DNA from: a virus
Lineage: Duplodnaviria; Heunggongvirae; Uroviricota; Caudoviricetes
Virus record (IMG/VR): IMGVR_UViG_3300027766_000002
Reading direction: 5' to 3' (one strand)
DNA: 64,000 nucleotides
Under the pieces are notes generated by a model. That model did not search any database. It saw nothing but the letters and a program-made list of their open reading frames with translations, and was not told where the DNA came from. The number at the start of each line of letters is the position of its first letter. Within the stretch, counting starts at the first letter, position 1. The translations under genes were made by a program, and so were the position numbers. This document shows, in pieces, positions 3,022-25,679 of this stretch.

Positions 3022-4359
3022 ACCACCATTTGCCATACCGGACGCCCATTGTCAGAAGAGTTTGATGATGACTTCCAGAACCGATTAACAGCTTACTACT
3101 GCAAGGATCAGGAGTTCCTGTTGCGCGCCGGGGATTTGGTTGATCCGAGCCAATTTGAAAACGCGGCAAACGCAATATTGGTTAACCTGGTTTCCTCTTA
3201 CTTCCGCATGTACAAGAGCGCACCTTCCAGCACGGCCATTCTCGACCAGCTGAAGCGCGCGAAGAAAGATAAGACGATCCGCGAAGAGCTGTTCCCGGAT
3301 GTGGTCGGCGCCTTCAAGCGTGTATTGGGTGAGAAATTGACAGACACCAAATACATGATTGACCGAGTGGCCACTTTTGCCCGGAGCATAGCTTTTGATG
3401 ACGCGCTGATCAAAGCGGCCGAGCTAAAAGAGAAGGGTGACTTCGAACGCGCCATGGAAGTGATGGCCAAGGTGCAGCTGGTGGGCGCGAGTGACACCAT
3501 AGGCATCTACAACTATCTGGGCGAAGCGGCCGAGCGTTTAAAGCAGCGTGAGTATGAGGCGTCTGAGGATTACGTACCAAACAGCATCACTACCGGCATA
3601 CCGCTGCTGGATCGACTGCTGTACCAGAAAGGGTGGGGGCGTCGTGAAATGGTTCTCTTCATGGGCTTCGCGAAGTCTGGTAAATCGACGGCCATGGGTG
3701 AGTTCTCCATTAACGCTACTTTAAAGGGCTTCAACGTTCTGTACGTCTCGCTGGAAGTTCACACCGCAATCTTGTCTGACCGTTTCGACGCACGTCTTTC
3801 TCAAACCGAAATGACGAAGTTGATCGAGAAGCGTGACGATGTTCATAAGAAGCTGGCCGACCTGGGCGCCAGTACCGGTGTGGGCAATTTGTGGGTTGTG
3901 GAGAGACCGTCTGGCAGCTTGTCACCTGCAGACCTCGATCGATTACTTGAAGGCATGAAGTCGAACGGGATGGTTCCTGACATGGTCGTGGTGGATTACG
4001 CCGACCTGATGAAACCAACACGACGCAGCGGCGATGAACGAGCAGATGTGAAAAGCATCTATACCGATCTCCGCGCAGTCTTCGACAAACACAATGCCGC
4101 TGGCATCACTGCATCCCAGACAAACCGAGAGGGTGGGGCGTCTGAGGTAGCCACGATGATGCACGCCGCAGATAACATTGAAAAGGTGCGTATCGCTGAC
4201 CTGGTAATCTCGATCAACAAAACGGAAGAGGAAGCAACGAAGGGTGAAGCGCGCTTGTACTTTGCAGGCTCTCGTAACCAGAAAGGCAACATCAGCATCC
4301 GAGTAAAGCAGAACCTGGAGCAGATGCGGTTTATTCAGGAAATTCTCGACGTTATCTAA
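3019..4359 (+). CDS. DnaB-like replicative DNA helicase (RecA-fold C-terminal domain)
   Basis: Walker A motif GFAKSGKST, followed by Walker B-like VVVDYADLM and a helicase C-terminal domain. 446 aa. Confidence 0.6.
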   Translation: MTTICHTGRPLSEEFDDDFQNRLTAYYCKDQEFLLRAGDLVDPSQFENAANAILVNLVSSYFRMYKSAPSSTAILDQLKRAKKDKTIREELFPDVVGAFKRVLGEKLTDTKYMIDRVATFARSIAFDDALIKAAELKEKGDFERAMEVMAKVQLVGASDTIGIYNYLGEAAERLKQREYEASEDYVPNSITTGIPLLDRLLYQKGWGRREMVLFMGFAKSGKSTAMGEFSINATLKGFNVLYVSLEVHTAILSDRFDARLSQTEMTKLIEKRDDVHKKLADLGASTGVGNLWVVERPSGSLSPADLDRLLEGMKSNGMVPDMVVVDYADLMKPTRRSGDERADVKSIYTDLRAVFDKHNAAGITASQTNREGGASEVATMMHAADNIEKVRIADLVISINKTEEEATKGEARLYFAGSRNQKGNISIRVKQNLEQMRFIQEILDVI

Positions 4360-20675: not shown

Positions 20676-21905
20676 ATGAGCGCCGTCCAAGTCCAAGACC
20701 ATGACACCCCAGCGAAGGAAACCATTACCTGCCATTGGTGTTCTTGCGAGTTCCACCACCTTAAATCGCATCTGCAGGGCAAATGCACCGGCATTCCTGA
20801 AGAGCATAAGAGCAGTACCGTTGAAGACATCATCGCGGCATACACCACTCAGTTCCCCGATGCGCCAACGATTTCACCTTTGGCCATTAAGACAATTCAG
20901 ACTCGTAAGCAGGAAATTCAAGCTGCTGAGAGCAAAGCACCGACCGTTAAGGTTGGCTACATCGGCACTGAGGAATACAAGGTGGAGATGGTGGCCGCAC
21001 ACGAGCTGCTTGGAGTAGATCTGAAAAGCCTATCCACCGCGCTAAACCAGCCCCTCAAGGTATCAGTGAACGTGAACACGCCATTCCCAGAGTTTGTACC
21101 AGTGGCCAAAGACAACTACGTATACGGTGACTTTGAGCTTATCAAAGATGTGCTGATGATGATGGAGCTGGGCATTCCAGGCTATCTGTGGGGTCATGCT
21201 GGCACTGGCAAAACCTCTCTCCCAACTCAGCTTTGCGCCCTGATGAATCGACCGGTCATCCGCTCTCAGCACACCGCTTCGACGGAAGAGGCGCATATCT
21301 CCGGGCAGATTCTGGCACGAGACGGTTCAACTTATTTCGAGCCTGGCTTGTTGGCACTGGCAATGCGTCACGGCTGGGTATATCTGGCAGATGAATACGA
21401 CTTTGCATTCCCTCAAATTTTGGGCATCTACCAGCCAGTGCTGGAGGGTGAAGGTCTTGTCATCAAAGAAGCTACCCCAGAGTGGCGCCGCGTTGCACCG
21501 CACAAACGTTTTGCTTTCATCGCCACCGGCAACACAAACGGATCTGGAGACGAAACAGGACTGTATCAGGGTACAAACCTGCAGAACGCCGCCAACTTCT
21601 CTCGCTTTGGAATTGTCTCGAAAGTTCATTACATGAGCCAGCGCGCCGAAACCAACATGCTGGTCAAAGCAGGCGCTACAGATGATTTCGCTCAGAAGCT
21701 GGTGCGCTTCGCAACCCTCATTCGTGAAGGCTACGAAACAAGCGTGATCTCACAACCAATTGGGCCGCGAGAGCTGCTGCTGTCTCTTCAGGTTGGTATT
21801 CGCCGCGGTGACATTCCAGCTGGTCTGCAACGCGCATTCATCAACAAACTCCCTTCAGCGTCTGCCCAGGCAGCGCGCGAGATTGCGGATCGCATTTTCG
21901 TATGA
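20676..21905 (+). CDS. cobS: AAA+ ATPase of the MoxR/CbbQ/CobS family
   Basis: Walker A GHAGTGKTS and Walker B VYLADEYDF. Preceded by AAAGGAAAAGCACATG. Confidence 0.6.
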   Translation: MSAVQVQDHDTPAKETITCHWCSCEFHHLKSHLQGKCTGIPEEHKSSTVEDIIAAYTTQFPDAPTISPLAIKTIQTRKQEIQAAESKAPTVKVGYIGTEEYKVEMVAAHELLGVDLKSLSTALNQPLKVSVNVNTPFPEFVPVAKDNYVYGDFELIKDVLMMMELGIPGYLWGHAGTGKTSLPTQLCALMNRPVIRSQHTASTEEAHISGQILARDGSTYFEPGLLALAMRHGWVYLADEYDFAFPQILGIYQPVLEGEGLVIKEATPEWRRVAPHKRFAFIATGNTNGSGDETGLYQGTNLQNAANFSRFGIVSKVHYMSQRAETNMLVKAGATDDFAQKLVRFATLIREGYETSVISQPIGPRELLLSLQVGIRRGDIPAGLQRAFINKLPSASAQAAREIADRIFV

Positions 21906-22105
21906 GCAAAGGCTGCTTTGGTTCACTGATAGCAGCCTCTGAAACTAATCCCGTTTGCATGGCATGTTCCAGCAAGCGGGATTGCTTTGTTAAGGCACAA
22001 GAGACCGCTATCAAGATTTACGGGAAGTTCGCTGGCTTCCCAAACGACAAAATAAAAAAGACAAGTAAGGCAAAAGCACATGAAAGCATTAATGGTACGA
22101 ACTGA
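21902..22105 (+). CDS. Hypothetical small Cys-containing protein
   Basis: ATGA overlap with cobS. 67 aa. Confidence 0.3.
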   Translation: MSKGCFGSLIAASETNPVCMACSSKRDCFVKAQETAIKIYGKFAGFPNDKIKKTSKAKAHESINGTN

Positions 22106-24437
22106 CTTCTCCCTGGGTGAGTCGTCTTTGAAGGCAGAGCGCGCCGTAGAGAAAGCCCGCGAAATGGGTTACTCGTCGGTGATCTCCGCTGACAGCATGA
22201 ATCTGGCATCCGTAATCCCCTTGCAGATGGCGGCTGGTGACGATGTTGCGGTCATTTGTGGTGTGAAGCTTAACCTGGTTGACGATCCTACATACGAGCA
22301 CCGCGCTCGACTTGCGAAGGAGTCTAAAGGATGTATGGAATCATTAACGCGCGCGCGTAACTACAGCTTCACGGCGCTAATCAAGAACGAGCAGGGCTAT
22401 GTCGATCTCTGCGAACTGATGACGCTGGCAAACACACGCGAGCAGTTTTATCACGTTCCCCGTCTTGAGCTGGCGCAGCTGCTGGCTACGTTCGCCAAAG
22501 GCAACATCATCCTGCTGACCTCGGACATGGGAAGCGTATTCCAGCGCCCGGACTTCGCGAAGATTATCGCCCAGCTGGTTCACGCTGGCGGCCGTGAGAA
22601 CTTTTACTGCGCCGTTTATCCGATTGCTACCCCCCTCTATGACCAGCTGAATAGCAAATCGCTCAAGGTGGCCAGTGCTCTTAAGATCGAGCCGGTGGCG
22701 TTCTACCCTGCTTACTACGAGGCTCCCACTGACGCTGACATCAAAGACATCGCGCATATGGTGCTGAACAACATCAAAATAGACCAGCTGCACCGTATGC
22801 GAATCCCGTATCAACGTGACAATGGCGTTAATGATCGCCGCCACTTACTCCAGCTATTGAAGGAGTTTGCGGTGCGGATGGGTGTCAACGTCACGCCAGC
22901 AATGGTCTCAACAACTCAGGACGCGATCATTGATGCGTGTACATGGCGCTGGCACCCGCTGGAGCCCGCTTTACCAACCATGGCAGATGATGAGCCAGCC
23001 ACATTGCGTAAACTCGCTGTAGAGGGGCTGAGGAAGCGTCTTAGCACCAAAGAGTTCGGCTATGCGCCACCAGCCACAATGCACCGTGATTATGTTGAGC
23101 GTCTGAAGTACGAACTTGATGTTTTAACCCGCCTTGGCTTCTGCGGCTACTTCCTCATGGTTCACGACCTGATGAATTACGCTCGCGGCGCCGGGATTCC
23201 TGTTGGGCCTGGTCGCGGTTCATCCGCTGGCTCTCTTGTCGCCTGGTGCGTGGGGATCACAAACGTAGACCCTATTCGCCATGGATTGCTGTTCGAACGT
23301 TTCATTAACCCTGAACGTCTCGACTTGCCCGATGCTGATCTGGACTTTAGCCAGGCACGTCGCCACGAGGTCATTGAGTACCTGGGTGAGCGTTACGGGG
23401 AGGATTACGTCGCTGGCATTCCCAACTTCACATACCTCGGTGCAGCTTCAGCACTGCGCGACACCGCACGTATCTTTGGCGTGGATTCAGCGGATATGGC
23501 GGTATCGAAAGACCTGCGCTTTGTCGATGACGATTCACTGTCACTCGAAGAGATGCGCGAAGAGCTTTCCAGCCTGGACAAATACGCAGCCAAATACCCG
23601 GACGCATTTAACGCGGCCACTAAACTGCAAAGTCTCATGCGCGGATTCGGCCGCCACGCAGCAGGCATGATCGTAGCCGGTGTGAAGCTGACGGAGCGCA
23701 CACCGGTAGAGCGACGCGGGGATGCGCGTGTAATCGCTTTTGACAAGCGTTACTGCGAATCCATGGGATTGATTAAGTTGGACGTGCTCGGCCTCGCTAC
23801 GCTCGATTTGCTGGCTTATGCGCAGGAATACGTGAAAGAAGCCACGGGCAGCGTGATTGATCTCGATGCAATTCCACTAACTGACAAAAAGGTTCTTGAT
23901 GGCTTTGCCGGTGGCCACACCCAGGGCGTGTTCCAGCTTGAATCAGGTTCGATGCGTAAGCTGCTAAAGGATCTGGGCGGCGGCATTGATCCGATGAGCT
24001 TTGAAACAGTTGTCGCCACGACAGCATTATTCCGACCTGGCCCGATCGAATCTGGAATGTTGGACAGCTACGTTTCGGTGGCCAAAGGCTTCAAAGAGGC
24101 TGATTCCATCCACCAGGTGCTCGATGAGCTTACCTCTGAGACCAATGGGGTAATTCTCTATCAGGAACAAACCATGAAGGCCACGCAGCTGCTGGCCGGC
24201 TTCACGCTCGCGGAAGCTGATGGCGTCCGTAAAGCGATCGGTAAAAAAGACATGGAGAAGATGAAGAAGGTCGGTAACCAGTTTATCGAGCAAGCCCAGG
24301 CTGGCTGGATAGAGGTGAAGTTGGAAGACGGAACCAATCGCCAGTTCCACCGCGCGGAGCACTTCAAATGTGCCGATGGCAAGCTGCGAACCATCGAAGA
24401 AGCAATGCACGATGGCGCCGAAGTTCTGGGTATCTAA
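22080..24437 (+). CDS. dnaE: DNA polymerase III alpha subunit (DnaE), N-terminal about 785 aa (PHP, palm, thumb, most of the fingers)
   Basis: GFCGYFLMVHDLMNYARGAGIPVGPGRGSSAGSLVAW…LLFERFINPERLDLPDADLDF matches the E. coli DnaE catalytic core. It ends at an in-frame TAA, 24 codons before the next in-frame dnaE ORF. Confidence 0.85.
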   Translation: MKALMVRTDFSLGESSLKAERAVEKAREMGYSSVISADSMNLASVIPLQMAAGDDVAVICGVKLNLVDDPTYEHRARLAKESKGCMESLTRARNYSFTALIKNEQGYVDLCELMTLANTREQFYHVPRLELAQLLATFAKGNIILLTSDMGSVFQRPDFAKIIAQLVHAGGRENFYCAVYPIATPLYDQLNSKSLKVASALKIEPVAFYPAYYEAPTDADIKDIAHMVLNNIKIDQLHRMRIPYQRDNGVNDRRHLLQLLKEFAVRMGVNVTPAMVSTTQDAIIDACTWRWHPLEPALPTMADDEPATLRKLAVEGLRKRLSTKEFGYAPPATMHRDYVERLKYELDVLTRLGFCGYFLMVHDLMNYARGAGIPVGPGRGSSAGSLVAWCVGITNVDPIRHGLLFERFINPERLDLPDADLDFSQARRHEVIEYLGERYGEDYVAGIPNFTYLGAASALRDTARIFGVDSADMAVSKDLRFVDDDSLSLEEMREELSSLDKYAAKYPDAFNAATKLQSLMRGFGRHAAGMIVAGVKLTERTPVERRGDARVIAFDKRYCESMGLIKLDVLGLATLDLLAYAQEYVKEATGSVIDLDAIPLTDKKVLDGFAGGHTQGVFQLESGSMRKLLKDLGGGIDPMSFETVVATTALFRPGPIESGMLDSYVSVAKGFKEADSIHQVLDELTSETNGVILYQEQTMKATQLLAGFTLAEADGVRKAIGKKDMEKMKKVGNQFIEQAQAGWIEVKLEDGTNRQFHRAEHFKCADGKLRTIEEAMHDGAEVLGI

Positions 24438-24509
24438 CCGTTTAACGCAGCTTGGATGCCGTATCTGAGCTGCGAAAATTAATACATGGATTGTGATTAA
24501 GAGGCACCA

Positions 24510-25679
24510 ATGAAAGTTTTAGAGACGATTTCCACGAAGCCCGGACTAAGTGATAGCAAAGCAAAAGAGATCTGGGAAGCGTTTGAAAAAAACGGGGCGT
24601 ACCAGTTCAACAAATCTCACTCAGTGGCTTACTCGCTGATTAGCTATCAGTCGATGTTCATGAAAACGCACTACCCTGCCCAATTCTTCGCAGCAGCGCT
24701 GACTATTTTGGGTGATGACAAGCATCAGGGGCTGGTCAAGGACGCGCTGAGCTTTGGCATTCGCATCTTGCCACCAGATGTAAACATCTCAACCAACCGC
24801 ATTGAGATCCGTCAGATGGAAGATGGTACGCAAGTGCTGTATGCGCCCTTCTCAGCTGTTAAAGGATGCTCAGAGAATGGATGCCAGGCAATCATGCGCG
24901 CCCGGGCGAAAGTGGGAGGCCATTTCACAGACATCATGCAGTTTGAAGAGGCGGTTGAGAAGCGCGCCTGCAACAGCCGTGTACGTGACTCTCTCGATCG
25001 TGTCGGTGCATTTGCCAGCATCATTCCCGGCAGCGTACCAGCTACCTCAGAAGAACGACGCCGCGACCAGGCGGAGCTGATGGGTAATCTGGTGATCGAT
25101 GCGGTAAAAGCGACACGCCAGTTTGAAATGAACCCGAAACGCCAGGCTGAAGTAAACGTGCTGATGACGAATATGGCCGCTGAAATGGGGCTGGGTGATG
25201 AGCTTATCCGTCCGAGCATCGGCATCAAACCACGCTTGATGATCATCCTCGACAACGCCAACGGTAACGATGGCAAAACCGGATACTTCATGGAGAACGG
25301 TTATGACGACTTCAAGGCGAAGTTGCTGGTTGCCGGCGATCTTAAAATGGGCGATTTGTACATTACCGGCGTTTGCAAGAAGGTGAAGGACAAAGAAAAG
25401 GACTACACCAAAGACGAGTTAGGCCAGTTTAACGAGTTCATCAAAGCAGAGGTAGCTTTGGTACGACCAACGTACATTCTTACTTGCGGCGCCAAGTCCA
25501 CCAGCCTGTTTAACAACAAATCGAAGCCATCAGATCTTGTTGGCCGCAAAGAGTATCTGCCGGAGTTGGATGTCACGGTATTCTATGGCTTTAATCCCAA
25601 CATTCTCCACTTCCGCCCAGAAGAAGGCGAAAAGCTGGAGTTGATCCTCGCTGACGTTGCCGAGGCAGTAAATTCGTGA
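24510..25679 (+). CDS. dnaE: DNA polymerase III alpha subunit (DnaE), C-terminal about 389 aa, separately initiated
   Basis: …FEKNGAYQFNKSHSVAYSLISYQSMFMKTHYPAQFFAAAL matches E. coli DnaE around residue 870. It has its own AAGAGG Shine-Dalgarno 5 nt before the ATG. It is in the same frame as the upstream ORF. Confidence 0.8.
   Translation: MKVLETISTKPGLSDSKAKEIWEAFEKNGAYQFNKSHSVAYSLISYQSMFMKTHYPAQFFAAALTILGDDKHQGLVKDALSFGIRILPPDVNISTNRIEIRQMEDGTQVLYAPFSAVKGCSENGCQAIMRARAKVGGHFTDIMQFEEAVEKRACNSRVRDSLDRVGAFASIIPGSVPATSEERRRDQAELMGNLVIDAVKATRQFEMNPKRQAEVNVLMTNMAAEMGLGDELIRPSIGIKPRLMIILDNANGNDGKTGYFMENGYDDFKAKLLVAGDLKMGDLYITGVCKKVKDKEKDYTKDELGQFNEFIKAEVALVRPTYILTCGAKSTSLFNNKSKPSDLVGRKEYLPELDVTVFYGFNPNILHFRPEEGEKLELILADVAEAVNS

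Follow-up and report, generated by a model that had tools for sequence, protein, structure and literature searches.

In the 'fractured genes' described by Dassa et al. (2009; PMC2677866), split inteins are encoded with a free-standing homing endonuclease gene (HEG) between the two gene halves; three metagenomic DnaE loci were among them, and gene fracturing by HNH endonucleases was predicted. In Aeromonas phage Aeh1 the nrdA gene is split by the HEG mobE and the enzyme is assembled via tails from the mobile element (Crona et al., 2011; PMC3045599), and in the T4-related Aeromonas phages 25 and 44RR the PolB gene 43 is divided into 43A and 43B, the products of which co-purify and are active (Petrov et al., 2010, reviewed in PMC2988022). 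The cyanobacterial split DnaE inteins (Ssp and Npu; PDB 1zd7, 2keq, 4kl5) join by trans-splicing two DnaE halves that are encoded at distant loci. Here we analyse a stretch of 64,000 nucleotides of viral DNA (IMG/VR record IMGVR_UViG_3300027766_000002; hereafter the window), whose source is an SSU5-like phage-plasmid and whose dnaE, the gene for the alpha subunit of DNA polymerase III (Pol III), lies in two adjacent cistrons. We consider it likely that the product is a two-polypeptide DnaE with an intein-derived junction, broken at the site where relatives of the element carry a HEG.

The locus and its family share with the fractured genes (PMC2677866) the order of the parts, with the host N-terminal half and intein N fragment followed by a free-standing HEG and then by the intein C fragment and host C-terminal half, as well as the setting, a phage-type element and a replication enzyme, here also DnaE. 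In contrast to the fractured genes, the intein parts are cut to about 44 and 10 residues and hold no catalytic residues, so that trans-splicing is not possible; the HEG of the family is of the NUMOD4/HNH type and not GIY-YIG or Vsr-like; and the HEG is gone from the window, while alleles that appear to be re-fused in frame exist in the family. As in Aeh1 nrdA (PMC3045599), an essential enzyme gene lies in two cistrons at a HEG insertion site and the products have extra C- and N-terminal tails that are absent from unsplit homologues. Aeh1 NrdA is a non-covalent complex formed with no RNA or protein splicing, as is proposed for the DnaE pieces; the enzyme and the endonuclease family differ, and the DnaE tails can be traced to the Hint fold of inteins, as one small predicted domain with the break in a loop.

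The likeness to 43A/43B (PMC2988022) is that of a replicative DNA polymerase in two cistrons, with a HEG (seg) in the gap of one phage and a short untranslated spacer in its relative, a pair comparable to the Klebsiella locus L005 and the window. Those polymerases are of the B family and from lytic T4-like phages, whereas the present one is of the C family and from a phage-plasmid, and no intein-derived junction is reported there. The tails of the window proteins are most similar, in sequence and predicted fold, to the cyanobacterial split DnaE inteins, which have the same host protein family and whose 102/103 break the gene break matches. The cyanobacterial intein, however, sits immediately before CFNKSH, whereas the remnant in the window ends 22 residues upstream, and the window halves are adjacent and unable to splice.

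Two cistrons together encode a C-family polymerase

The products of the two open reading frames (ORFs; Table 1) are complementary parts of a single enzyme. The N piece comprises the PHP domain, the palm and thumb and the first part of the fingers of a C-family Pol III alpha, with Pfam matches to PHP (PF02811), DNA_pol3_alpha (PF07733) and DNA_pol3_finger (PF17657), and then the Hint-derived tail; the C piece supplies the remaining fingers (FNKSHS at residues 33-38), the helix-hairpin-helix (HhH) and beta-binding region and a C-terminal domain like family 4 UDG. The identity of the protein as a DnaE-type Pol III alpha is given by TIGR00594, which scores above its cut-off for the N piece, and by PDB matches to the Pol III alpha of Taq, E. 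coli and Mtb, and Pfam, NCBIfam and PDB between them account for the PHP, palm/thumb, fingers and HhH beta-binding domains across the two pieces. Of the NCBIfam DnaE model NF004226, the first ORF matches positions 9-726 and the second 725-884; thus no part of DnaE is missing and the two ORFs abut within the polymerase.

An earlier sequence-only reading of this DNA had described two DnaE ORFs in a common frame, interrupted by three in-frame stops, with a Shine-Dalgarno (SD) sequence ahead of the second, and this layout was confirmed in the sequence. The same reading had placed the break about 25 residues upstream of FNKSHS; the distance is 32 residues.

Table 1. Features of the split dnaE locus, in coordinates of the window.
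Feature	Position	Strand	Basis or remark
dnaE-N gene, 785 aa	22080..24437	+	ORF list; protein ends ...HDGAEVLGI, then TAA
N-tail, 44 codons (GWIEVKLEDGTNRQFHRAEHFKCADGKLRTIEEAMHDGAEVLGI)	24303..24434	+	larger part of the predicted Hint-derived mini-domain
TAA stop of dnaE-N	24435..24437	+	sequence; conserved in 13/13 close copies
Untranslated spacer, 72 nt	24438..24509	+	in-frame TAA at 24480 and 24498
RNA hairpin, 13 bp, CGCAGCUUGGAUG-CCG-UAUCUGAGCUGCG	24446..24474	+	RNA fold; no U-tract after it
Shine-Dalgarno AAGAGG of dnaE-C	24499..24504	+	ATG 5 nt downstream
dnaE-C gene, 389 aa, ATG at 24510	24510..25679	+	ORF list; Pfam HHH_6
C-head MKVLETISTK	24510..24539	+	last beta-strand of the predicted Hint-derived mini-domain

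The same break recurs across the family

Elements of the SSU5-like type were seen here in Klebsiella, E. coli, Enterobacter, Cronobacter, Xenorhabdus and Acinetobacter, and the break belongs to their family as a whole. C pieces that stand alone have 385-421 amino acids and range from 99% down to 33% identity; they all begin with MK and then I or V at the same alignment position, and N pieces of 756-792 amino acids all end in the same tail motif. What fills the gap varies (Table 2). The gap ORFs of L005, L015 and L016 are intact HEGs with NUMOD4, HNH_3 and HTH domains (PHROG 59), which are homologous and 33-42% identical in pairwise comparison. The 229-nt gap of L010/L011 holds two HEG fragments in different frames (E=9e-8 and 4e-9) and is, from these matches, a decayed HEG copy. 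The gap ORF of L014 (184 amino acids, L014 2932-3486) has no match in Pfam or PHROG and no similarity to the HEGs; a different gene occupies the same dnaE site in this lineage.

Table 2. Split dnaE loci of the family and the content of the gap.
Locus	C-piece identity to the window	N piece	Gap	C piece
L007	85%	784 aa	73 nt, homologous to the window spacer	389 aa
L005/L006 (Klebsiella)	~81%	787 aa	233-aa ORF	389 aa
L012	65%	787 aa	73 nt	390 aa
L009	63%	790 aa	70 nt	386 aa
L013	58%	789 aa	84 nt	389 aa
L014	55%	790 aa	unrelated 184-aa ORF	385 aa
L015	47%	785 aa	238-aa ORF	391 aa
L016	38%	761 aa	176-aa ORF	388 aa
L010/L011 (Acinetobacter baumannii)	35%	785 aa	229 nt	421 aa

A few relatives carry other fusions. 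In L017 (3501-4676; protein P0019) a HEG is fused to a truncated C piece, P0011 has an internal deletion from PHP to HhH, P0024 joins the C piece to gp32, and P0111 and P0128 join DnaE to RecA. These deletion fusions are probably defective elements or assembly chimeras.

A predicted Hint-derived mini-domain at the junction

Aligned to Taq Pol III alpha, the proteins of the family have about 54 additional residues, inserted between positions 788 and 791; 44 of them close piece 1 and 10 open piece 2, and the insertion ends 22 residues upstream of FNKSH. A profile of 25 insertion sequences (an earlier one had 11) was searched with hmmsearch against 177,635 PDB sequences. Its best natural matches were split DnaE inteins (7qil, E=1.2e-5; Npu 2keq, 1.6e-4; Ssp 1zd7, 0.07), in one stretch over intein residues ~63-112, which runs from the C-terminal end of the intein N fragment (IntN) across the natural 102/103 break into the intein C fragment (IntC); the best match of a reversed-sequence control profile had E=1.6. 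In this alignment the counterpart of the N-tail is the C-terminal ~45 residues of IntN, and that of the C-head is the first strand of IntC. An hhalign comparison with the Npu intein, the sequence of which was checked against 2keq, gave P=1e-6 and a probability of 91%. Only designed TIM-barrel repeats scored better or comparably, a 20-residue helix-strand unit being matched four times; these and DARPins were discounted, as they match the helix-strand half of the profile alone, via repeats, with a per-domain E of ~8.

Structure prediction points the same way. AlphaFold2 models the segment on its own with a pLDDT of 86 and within a full-length continuous homologue with a pLDDT of 83-92, as strands at 743-748 and 753-757, a helix at 772-778, a loop at 779-785 and a strand at 786-793, and the top eight Foldseek matches are DnaE inteins. 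The gene break of the window maps to the 779-785 loop of the continuous-homologue model, and in the alignment it coincides with the point at which the intein itself is split and houses its endonuclease. By homology in sequence and in predicted fold the ~54-residue segment is Hint-derived, and by these models it is a clade-wide folded mini-domain, present in continuous alleles too.

The resemblance to Hint block B that the sequence-only reading had pointed to, and its suggestion of a degraded intein, are thus borne out by the profile statistics and predicted fold, with several changes of detail. The search against Hint families that it suggested finds the DnaE inteins when made with profiles and structures, and gives no Hint family when made with single sequences against Pfam. 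The extra segment that it noted exists, while the figure of about 80 codons counted 24 codons of spacer. The remnant lies in the two protein tails rather than in the 72-nt spacer, it does not stand at the insertion point of the cyanobacterial intein, and it is not a scar peculiar to this genome.

Continuous and insertion-less alleles, and a mobile cassette

Among the relatives both the same split and an unbroken dnaE were found. Klebsiella pJN2-26 and ST13-OXA48phi12.3 encode a single DnaE of 1172 amino acids with the extra segment uninterrupted, and with Met or Ile at the position where the C piece of the window starts; in a protein search, continuous forms of 1168-1210 amino acids were found at many levels of divergence. 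The segment is absent altogether from forms of 1118 amino acids and from the fragment P0027, in which FVEGCEK is joined directly to VNGIPE. In a neighbour-joining tree built on the polymerase core, split alleles are mixed in with continuous and insertion-less ones. Its deepest branches (L016, L010, L015) are split and have a HEG or HEG remnant, and the alleles without the whole mini-domain adjoin a HEG-bearing sister lineage.

The E. coli type of 1168 amino acids looks like an in-frame re-fusion of a HEG-type allele: its sequence ...DGIDYVE continues directly as IVSEQEGLS, where the HEG-type allele has ...DNADIVDFGV, a stop, the HEG and then MKIAKVISEQEGLS. A second comparison, between the HEG allele of L005 and the continuous allele of L001, shows 96-100% identity over dnaE outside one tract, which extends from ~470 nt upstream to ~550 nt downstream of the HEG with a graded fall to 53-85%. 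This is the pattern expected of homing, in which the flanks would have been co-converted from a divergent donor. The graded tract and the interleaved alleles together argue that the cassette, with its predicted endonuclease, is mobile.

Taken together, these observations favor a DnaE of two polypeptides with an intein-derived junction at the HEG site of its relatives. Several points weigh against this interpretation. In sequence the segment is only remotely similar to inteins (19-29% identity), stretches of the profile also pick up ankyrin-like and designed TIM-barrel repeats, and the support for a Hint fold comes from predicted models. Single-sequence Pfam searches gave no Hint or intein family on the N piece, the C piece or the 100-residue junction of the continuous homologue, and a mini-domain profile search of 1.84 billion representative proteins, which returned DnaE pieces and fragments and a few repeat proteins alone, contained no more complete intein that might be a donor. 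In the window itself no HEG remnant is detectable in the spacer, which is linked to a HEG through the common position of the break. By analogy with the discussion of phages 25 and 44RR (PMC2988022), the HEG could also have invaded a gene that was already split.

The last point leads to the alternative that fares best, in which the split is real and functional but no intein gave rise to the mini-domain, and the endonuclease arrived later, in a gap opened by some other small insertion, the hairpin spacer. Free-standing homing endonucleases usually settle in intergenic gaps. The clean spacer of the window and the double nature of the profile matches would both fit such a history, the short hairpin spacers are common to several related lineages and may be old, and the same ambiguity has been discussed for the gene 43 polymerase of the two Aeromonas phages (PMC2988022). 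Against this stand the HEGs or remnants on the deepest branches, the contrast between the forward profile (E=1.2e-5) and the reversed one (1.6), the coincidence of the break with the split and endonuclease site of inteins, and the position of the alleles without the mini-domain beside a HEG-bearing sister lineage. We consider this alternative unlikely.

Both cistrons are maintained by selection

The split exists as read, is conserved and is under selection. Both sister plasmids, which are complete and come from two different genera, have an identical stop, spacer, SD and ATG, and an N piece of 785 amino acids that is 99% identical (P0036, which NCBI names for Enterobacter kobei) occurs on at least 19 contigs of unrelated sequencing projects. 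The arrangement of 785 amino acids and 72 nt was found in all ten of the retrieved P0036 places (10/10), and the gene of 389 amino acids is called wherever the contig reaches far enough, with the exception of the NCBI record L023, in which the N piece alone is called. Comparisons among the window, L003 and L004 yield dN/dS ratios of 0.04-0.07 (N piece) and 0.01-0.03 (C piece), a sign of strong purifying selection on both. Relative to L007, where synonymous sites have reached saturation, the two ORFs nevertheless persist, as do the stop, SD and ATG. An SD-like purine run precedes the ATG of the C piece in every split lineage examined. The spacer varies at 2 of 72 sites among 12 aligned copies, about five times less than third codon positions (15.4%; Poisson test, P ~0.001-0.005), and thus its sequence is itself constrained; one of the variable sites lies in the hairpin loop and the other just 5' of the SD.

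A dnaE inactivated by a small insertion, in an element that relies on the host polymerase, would account for the three in-frame stops and would fit a pseudogene flag on the two RefSeq plasmids, for which the PLSDB tables list no coding sequence (CDS) over dnaE. The dN/dS of 0.01-0.07 in both pieces speaks against it, as do the integrity of both ORFs at synonymous saturation (L007) and in lineages down to 33% identity, the SD and ATG kept in every lineage and the constraint on the spacer. This evidence, with the conservation of the arrangement in many assemblies, rules out the pseudogene that the sequence-only reading had listed among its options to the point of making it very improbable, and bears out its option of a naturally two-piece polymerase together with the family-wide break.

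Annotation of the two-gene polymerase is inconsistent. L003 and L004 are the RefSeq plasmids NZ_CP017663 and NZ_CP104015, and their dnaE is probably flagged as a pseudogene in RefSeq, since the PLSDB table omits pseudogenes. In PHROGs the stand-alone C piece is phrog_4335, 'unknown function', and some C pieces at NCBI are named 'uracil-DNA glycosylase'.

A conserved hairpin in the spacer

The hairpin of the spacer starts 8 nt past the dnaE-N stop and has a counterpart in every short-spacer lineage (five spacers were folded, those of L007, L009, L012 and L013 from gaps of 70-84 nt). Between the window and L007 the stem changes are one-sided and pairing is kept through G.U on the sense strand alone, while between L009 and L012 there is a compensatory double change from G-C to A-U. 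The hairpin and the low variability of the spacer suggest a role at the RNA level, and the hairpin may stabilise the mRNA, mark a site for its processing or insulate one cistron from the other. Nothing credible came from an Rfam scan of 24300-24650, and a scan for promoters and terminators found no site in the spacer. The window spacer is homologous to the 73-nt spacer of L007, with which it has a 15-nt block in common by blastn-short; that search, whose targets were all loci, the HEG cassettes and the window itself, gave only close relatives besides this block, BLAST against phage and plasmid collections returned the two sister plasmids alone, and tblastn found no HEG elsewhere in the window. 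In L010 a palindrome, AAACA(A)GGTGTTT (4304-4319), stands just upstream of the start codon of the decayed HEG and is similar to the cores of the hairpins in L009, L012 and L013, whose spacers lack a HEG (blastn-short E ~0.02-0.13). From this resemblance, the spacer hairpins may descend from the 5' regulatory region of the endonuclease.

A stable hairpin 8 nt after a stop, between two ORFs in a common frame, would also fit ribosomes that cross the 72 nt, by bypass or readthrough, and make a single fused DnaE, in the manner of T4 gene 60 hopping. Such ribosomes would have three TAA codons to pass. The two pieces are in the same frame in only 3/10 split lineages, which makes the shared frame of the window a matter of chance; no matched take-off and landing codons were seen by eye in the window, L007 or L012; relatives have gaps of 535-724 nt with a whole gene at the same site; and each C piece comes with an SD and an ATG of its own. 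The recoding site proposed by the sequence-only reading is ruled out on these grounds, and we give it even less credence than a pseudogene.

Within the spacer of the window a tiny ORF, ATG GAT TGT GAT TAA (24486-24500), ends 9 nt before the ATG of the C piece, and its coding is not conserved; L007 has instead an upstream ATG in frame with the C piece, which would add 8 residues.

The junction retains no splicing elements

A functional Hint fold needs at least about 125 residues and the blocks A, B, F and G. The insertion, with its ~54 residues, is less than half of a Hint fold and aligns to intein residues ~58-112 alone. It starts with G-W straight after the extein-homologous ...AQA, with no Cys or Ser nucleophile and no block A Cys1. 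The TxxH motif of block B is not found, the conserved His being aligned with an intein Thr and the intein His with a variable E/K column, and there is no block F, no block G and no terminal Asn. Directly after the 10-residue C-head stands Pro (PGLSD, aligned to Taq DnaE from 791 onward) and not Cys, Ser or Thr. As all catalytic elements of an intein are absent, the two pieces cannot be spliced.

An active split intein, with the tails trans-splicing the pieces as in cyanobacterial DnaE, would be in keeping with the apparent homology of the tails to the C-terminal end of IntN and the N-terminal end of IntC of DnaE inteins, and with dnaE as the host gene. With ~54 of the roughly 135 residues needed, with no residue in place for any of the splicing steps from the insertion start to the Pro after the C-head, and with continuous alleles that keep the segment as a permanent, confidently predicted part of a protein of 1172 amino acids, it is less credible again than recoding. 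Least of all do we credit a sequencing or assembly artefact in one record, for which there is nothing beyond the oddity of stops in an essential-looking gene, as the 72-nt spacer is present with 2 variable sites in 13 aligned copies from independent projects and technologies, and the sister plasmids and retrieved contigs have the same split layout and no continuous ORF.

Proposed assembly and origin of the two-piece polymerase

We propose that the Pol III alpha replicase of this element is made as two polypeptides from two adjacent cistrons, broken in a loop of a mini-domain within the fingers that would correspond to the part of the Hint fold flanking the canonical endonuclease and split site. 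The cistrons are probably co-transcribed, since no promoter or terminator pattern was found between them, and the C piece would be initiated independently at its own SD. Because no splicing residues remain, we infer that the two subunits assemble non-covalently. The split fingers would be re-formed from the two pieces, and the MKVLETIS strand of piece 2 may complete the beta-sheet of the N-tail, as a zipper like that of split inteins but without the chemistry. Such an assembly would parallel the tails of Aeh1 NrdA and the active 43A/43B polymerase.

In relatives, the gene in the gap is a free-standing NUMOD4/HNH/HTH HEG, and this cassette would spread by recombination with co-conversion of its flanks. 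In the lineage of the window, loss of the endonuclease would have left the stop codon, the constrained hairpin spacer and the SD and ATG. Two routes to this arrangement are consistent with the data. In the first, a HEG between split-intein halves would have moved to a new site in dnaE and carried the adjacent intein ends with it; this single step would supply the stop, SD, ATG and tails together, which would explain why the endonuclease-proximal part of the Hint fold alone is present. In the second, a full intein at the dnaE site would have decayed in place through two deletions.

A more far-reaching form of the proposal, which we put forward tentatively and rate at a little less than an even chance, is that the half-Hint is a domesticated zipper free of chemistry, and that the IntN end with its stop, the HNH gene, and the SD and ATG with the start of IntC make up a self-sufficient cassette for fracturing genes. 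Such a cassette would enter unbroken dnaE alleles by homing and, with that one step, still leave them viable. Once the endonuclease was lost, the gene would either remain in two pieces, with a hairpin spacer under selection (the state of the window), or be re-fused in frame, with the intein piece kept as a permanent domain.

Other features of the locus

The window has the gene order CobT, AAA_5, DnaE, and further on gp32, exonuclease and RecA, and the records closest to it are two plasmids of 109 kb, one from Cronobacter sp. JZ38 (97% identity) and one from Enterobacter sp. CP102 (95.5%). The UDG-family-4-like domain at the end of the C piece (25320-25676; Pfam UDG, E=0.009; TIGR00758, E=3e-7, below its cut-off) takes the place of the OB and tau-binding C-terminus of cellular DnaE; a Cys-rich CDGC motif in this region is kept by distant members of the family and absent from the protein of the window. 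An ORF of 67 amino acids (21902-22105) shares 26 nt with the start of dnaE-N. Gene calls for it exist in several close relatives too, for instance at 1323-1526 in L018, and it has no family match on record. Downstream of dnaE in L010/L011 (9050-10266), a RecA-like gene carries an intein, seen as PF14890 between two RecA_N matches in a product of 732 amino acids; thus bona fide inteins circulate in the replication module of this element family.

Discussion

The arrangement described here belongs with the 'fractured genes' (PMC2677866) and with the 'genes in pieces' made by homing endonucleases (PMC3045599, PMC2988022). Within the literature searched, no earlier account was found in which SSU5-like phage-plasmids have a split DnaE or intein remnants serve as junctions, which is not proof of absence. 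A non-splicing half-Hint remnant as a junction between polypeptides appears to be new, as does a case of this kind for a C-family replicase in phage-plasmids, and so does the presence of all states of the life cycle in one family, alleles with only a spacer and re-fused alleles included.

The stages of the endonuclease life cycle can be followed here within one gene family, from the empty site through the occupied site, the decaying endonuclease and the spacer alone to the apparently re-fused gene. The junction is a natural test case for non-covalent assembly through split-intein fragments, and as such bears on the engineering of inteins and on the origin of split inteins. Recognition of the two-gene polymerase would help the typing of SSU5-like phage-plasmids and the inference of their functions. 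For the elements themselves, the locus illustrates one way in which an essential gene may survive breakage by a selfish element, with the intein fragments supplying the stop, the restart and possibly the glue between the two proteins.

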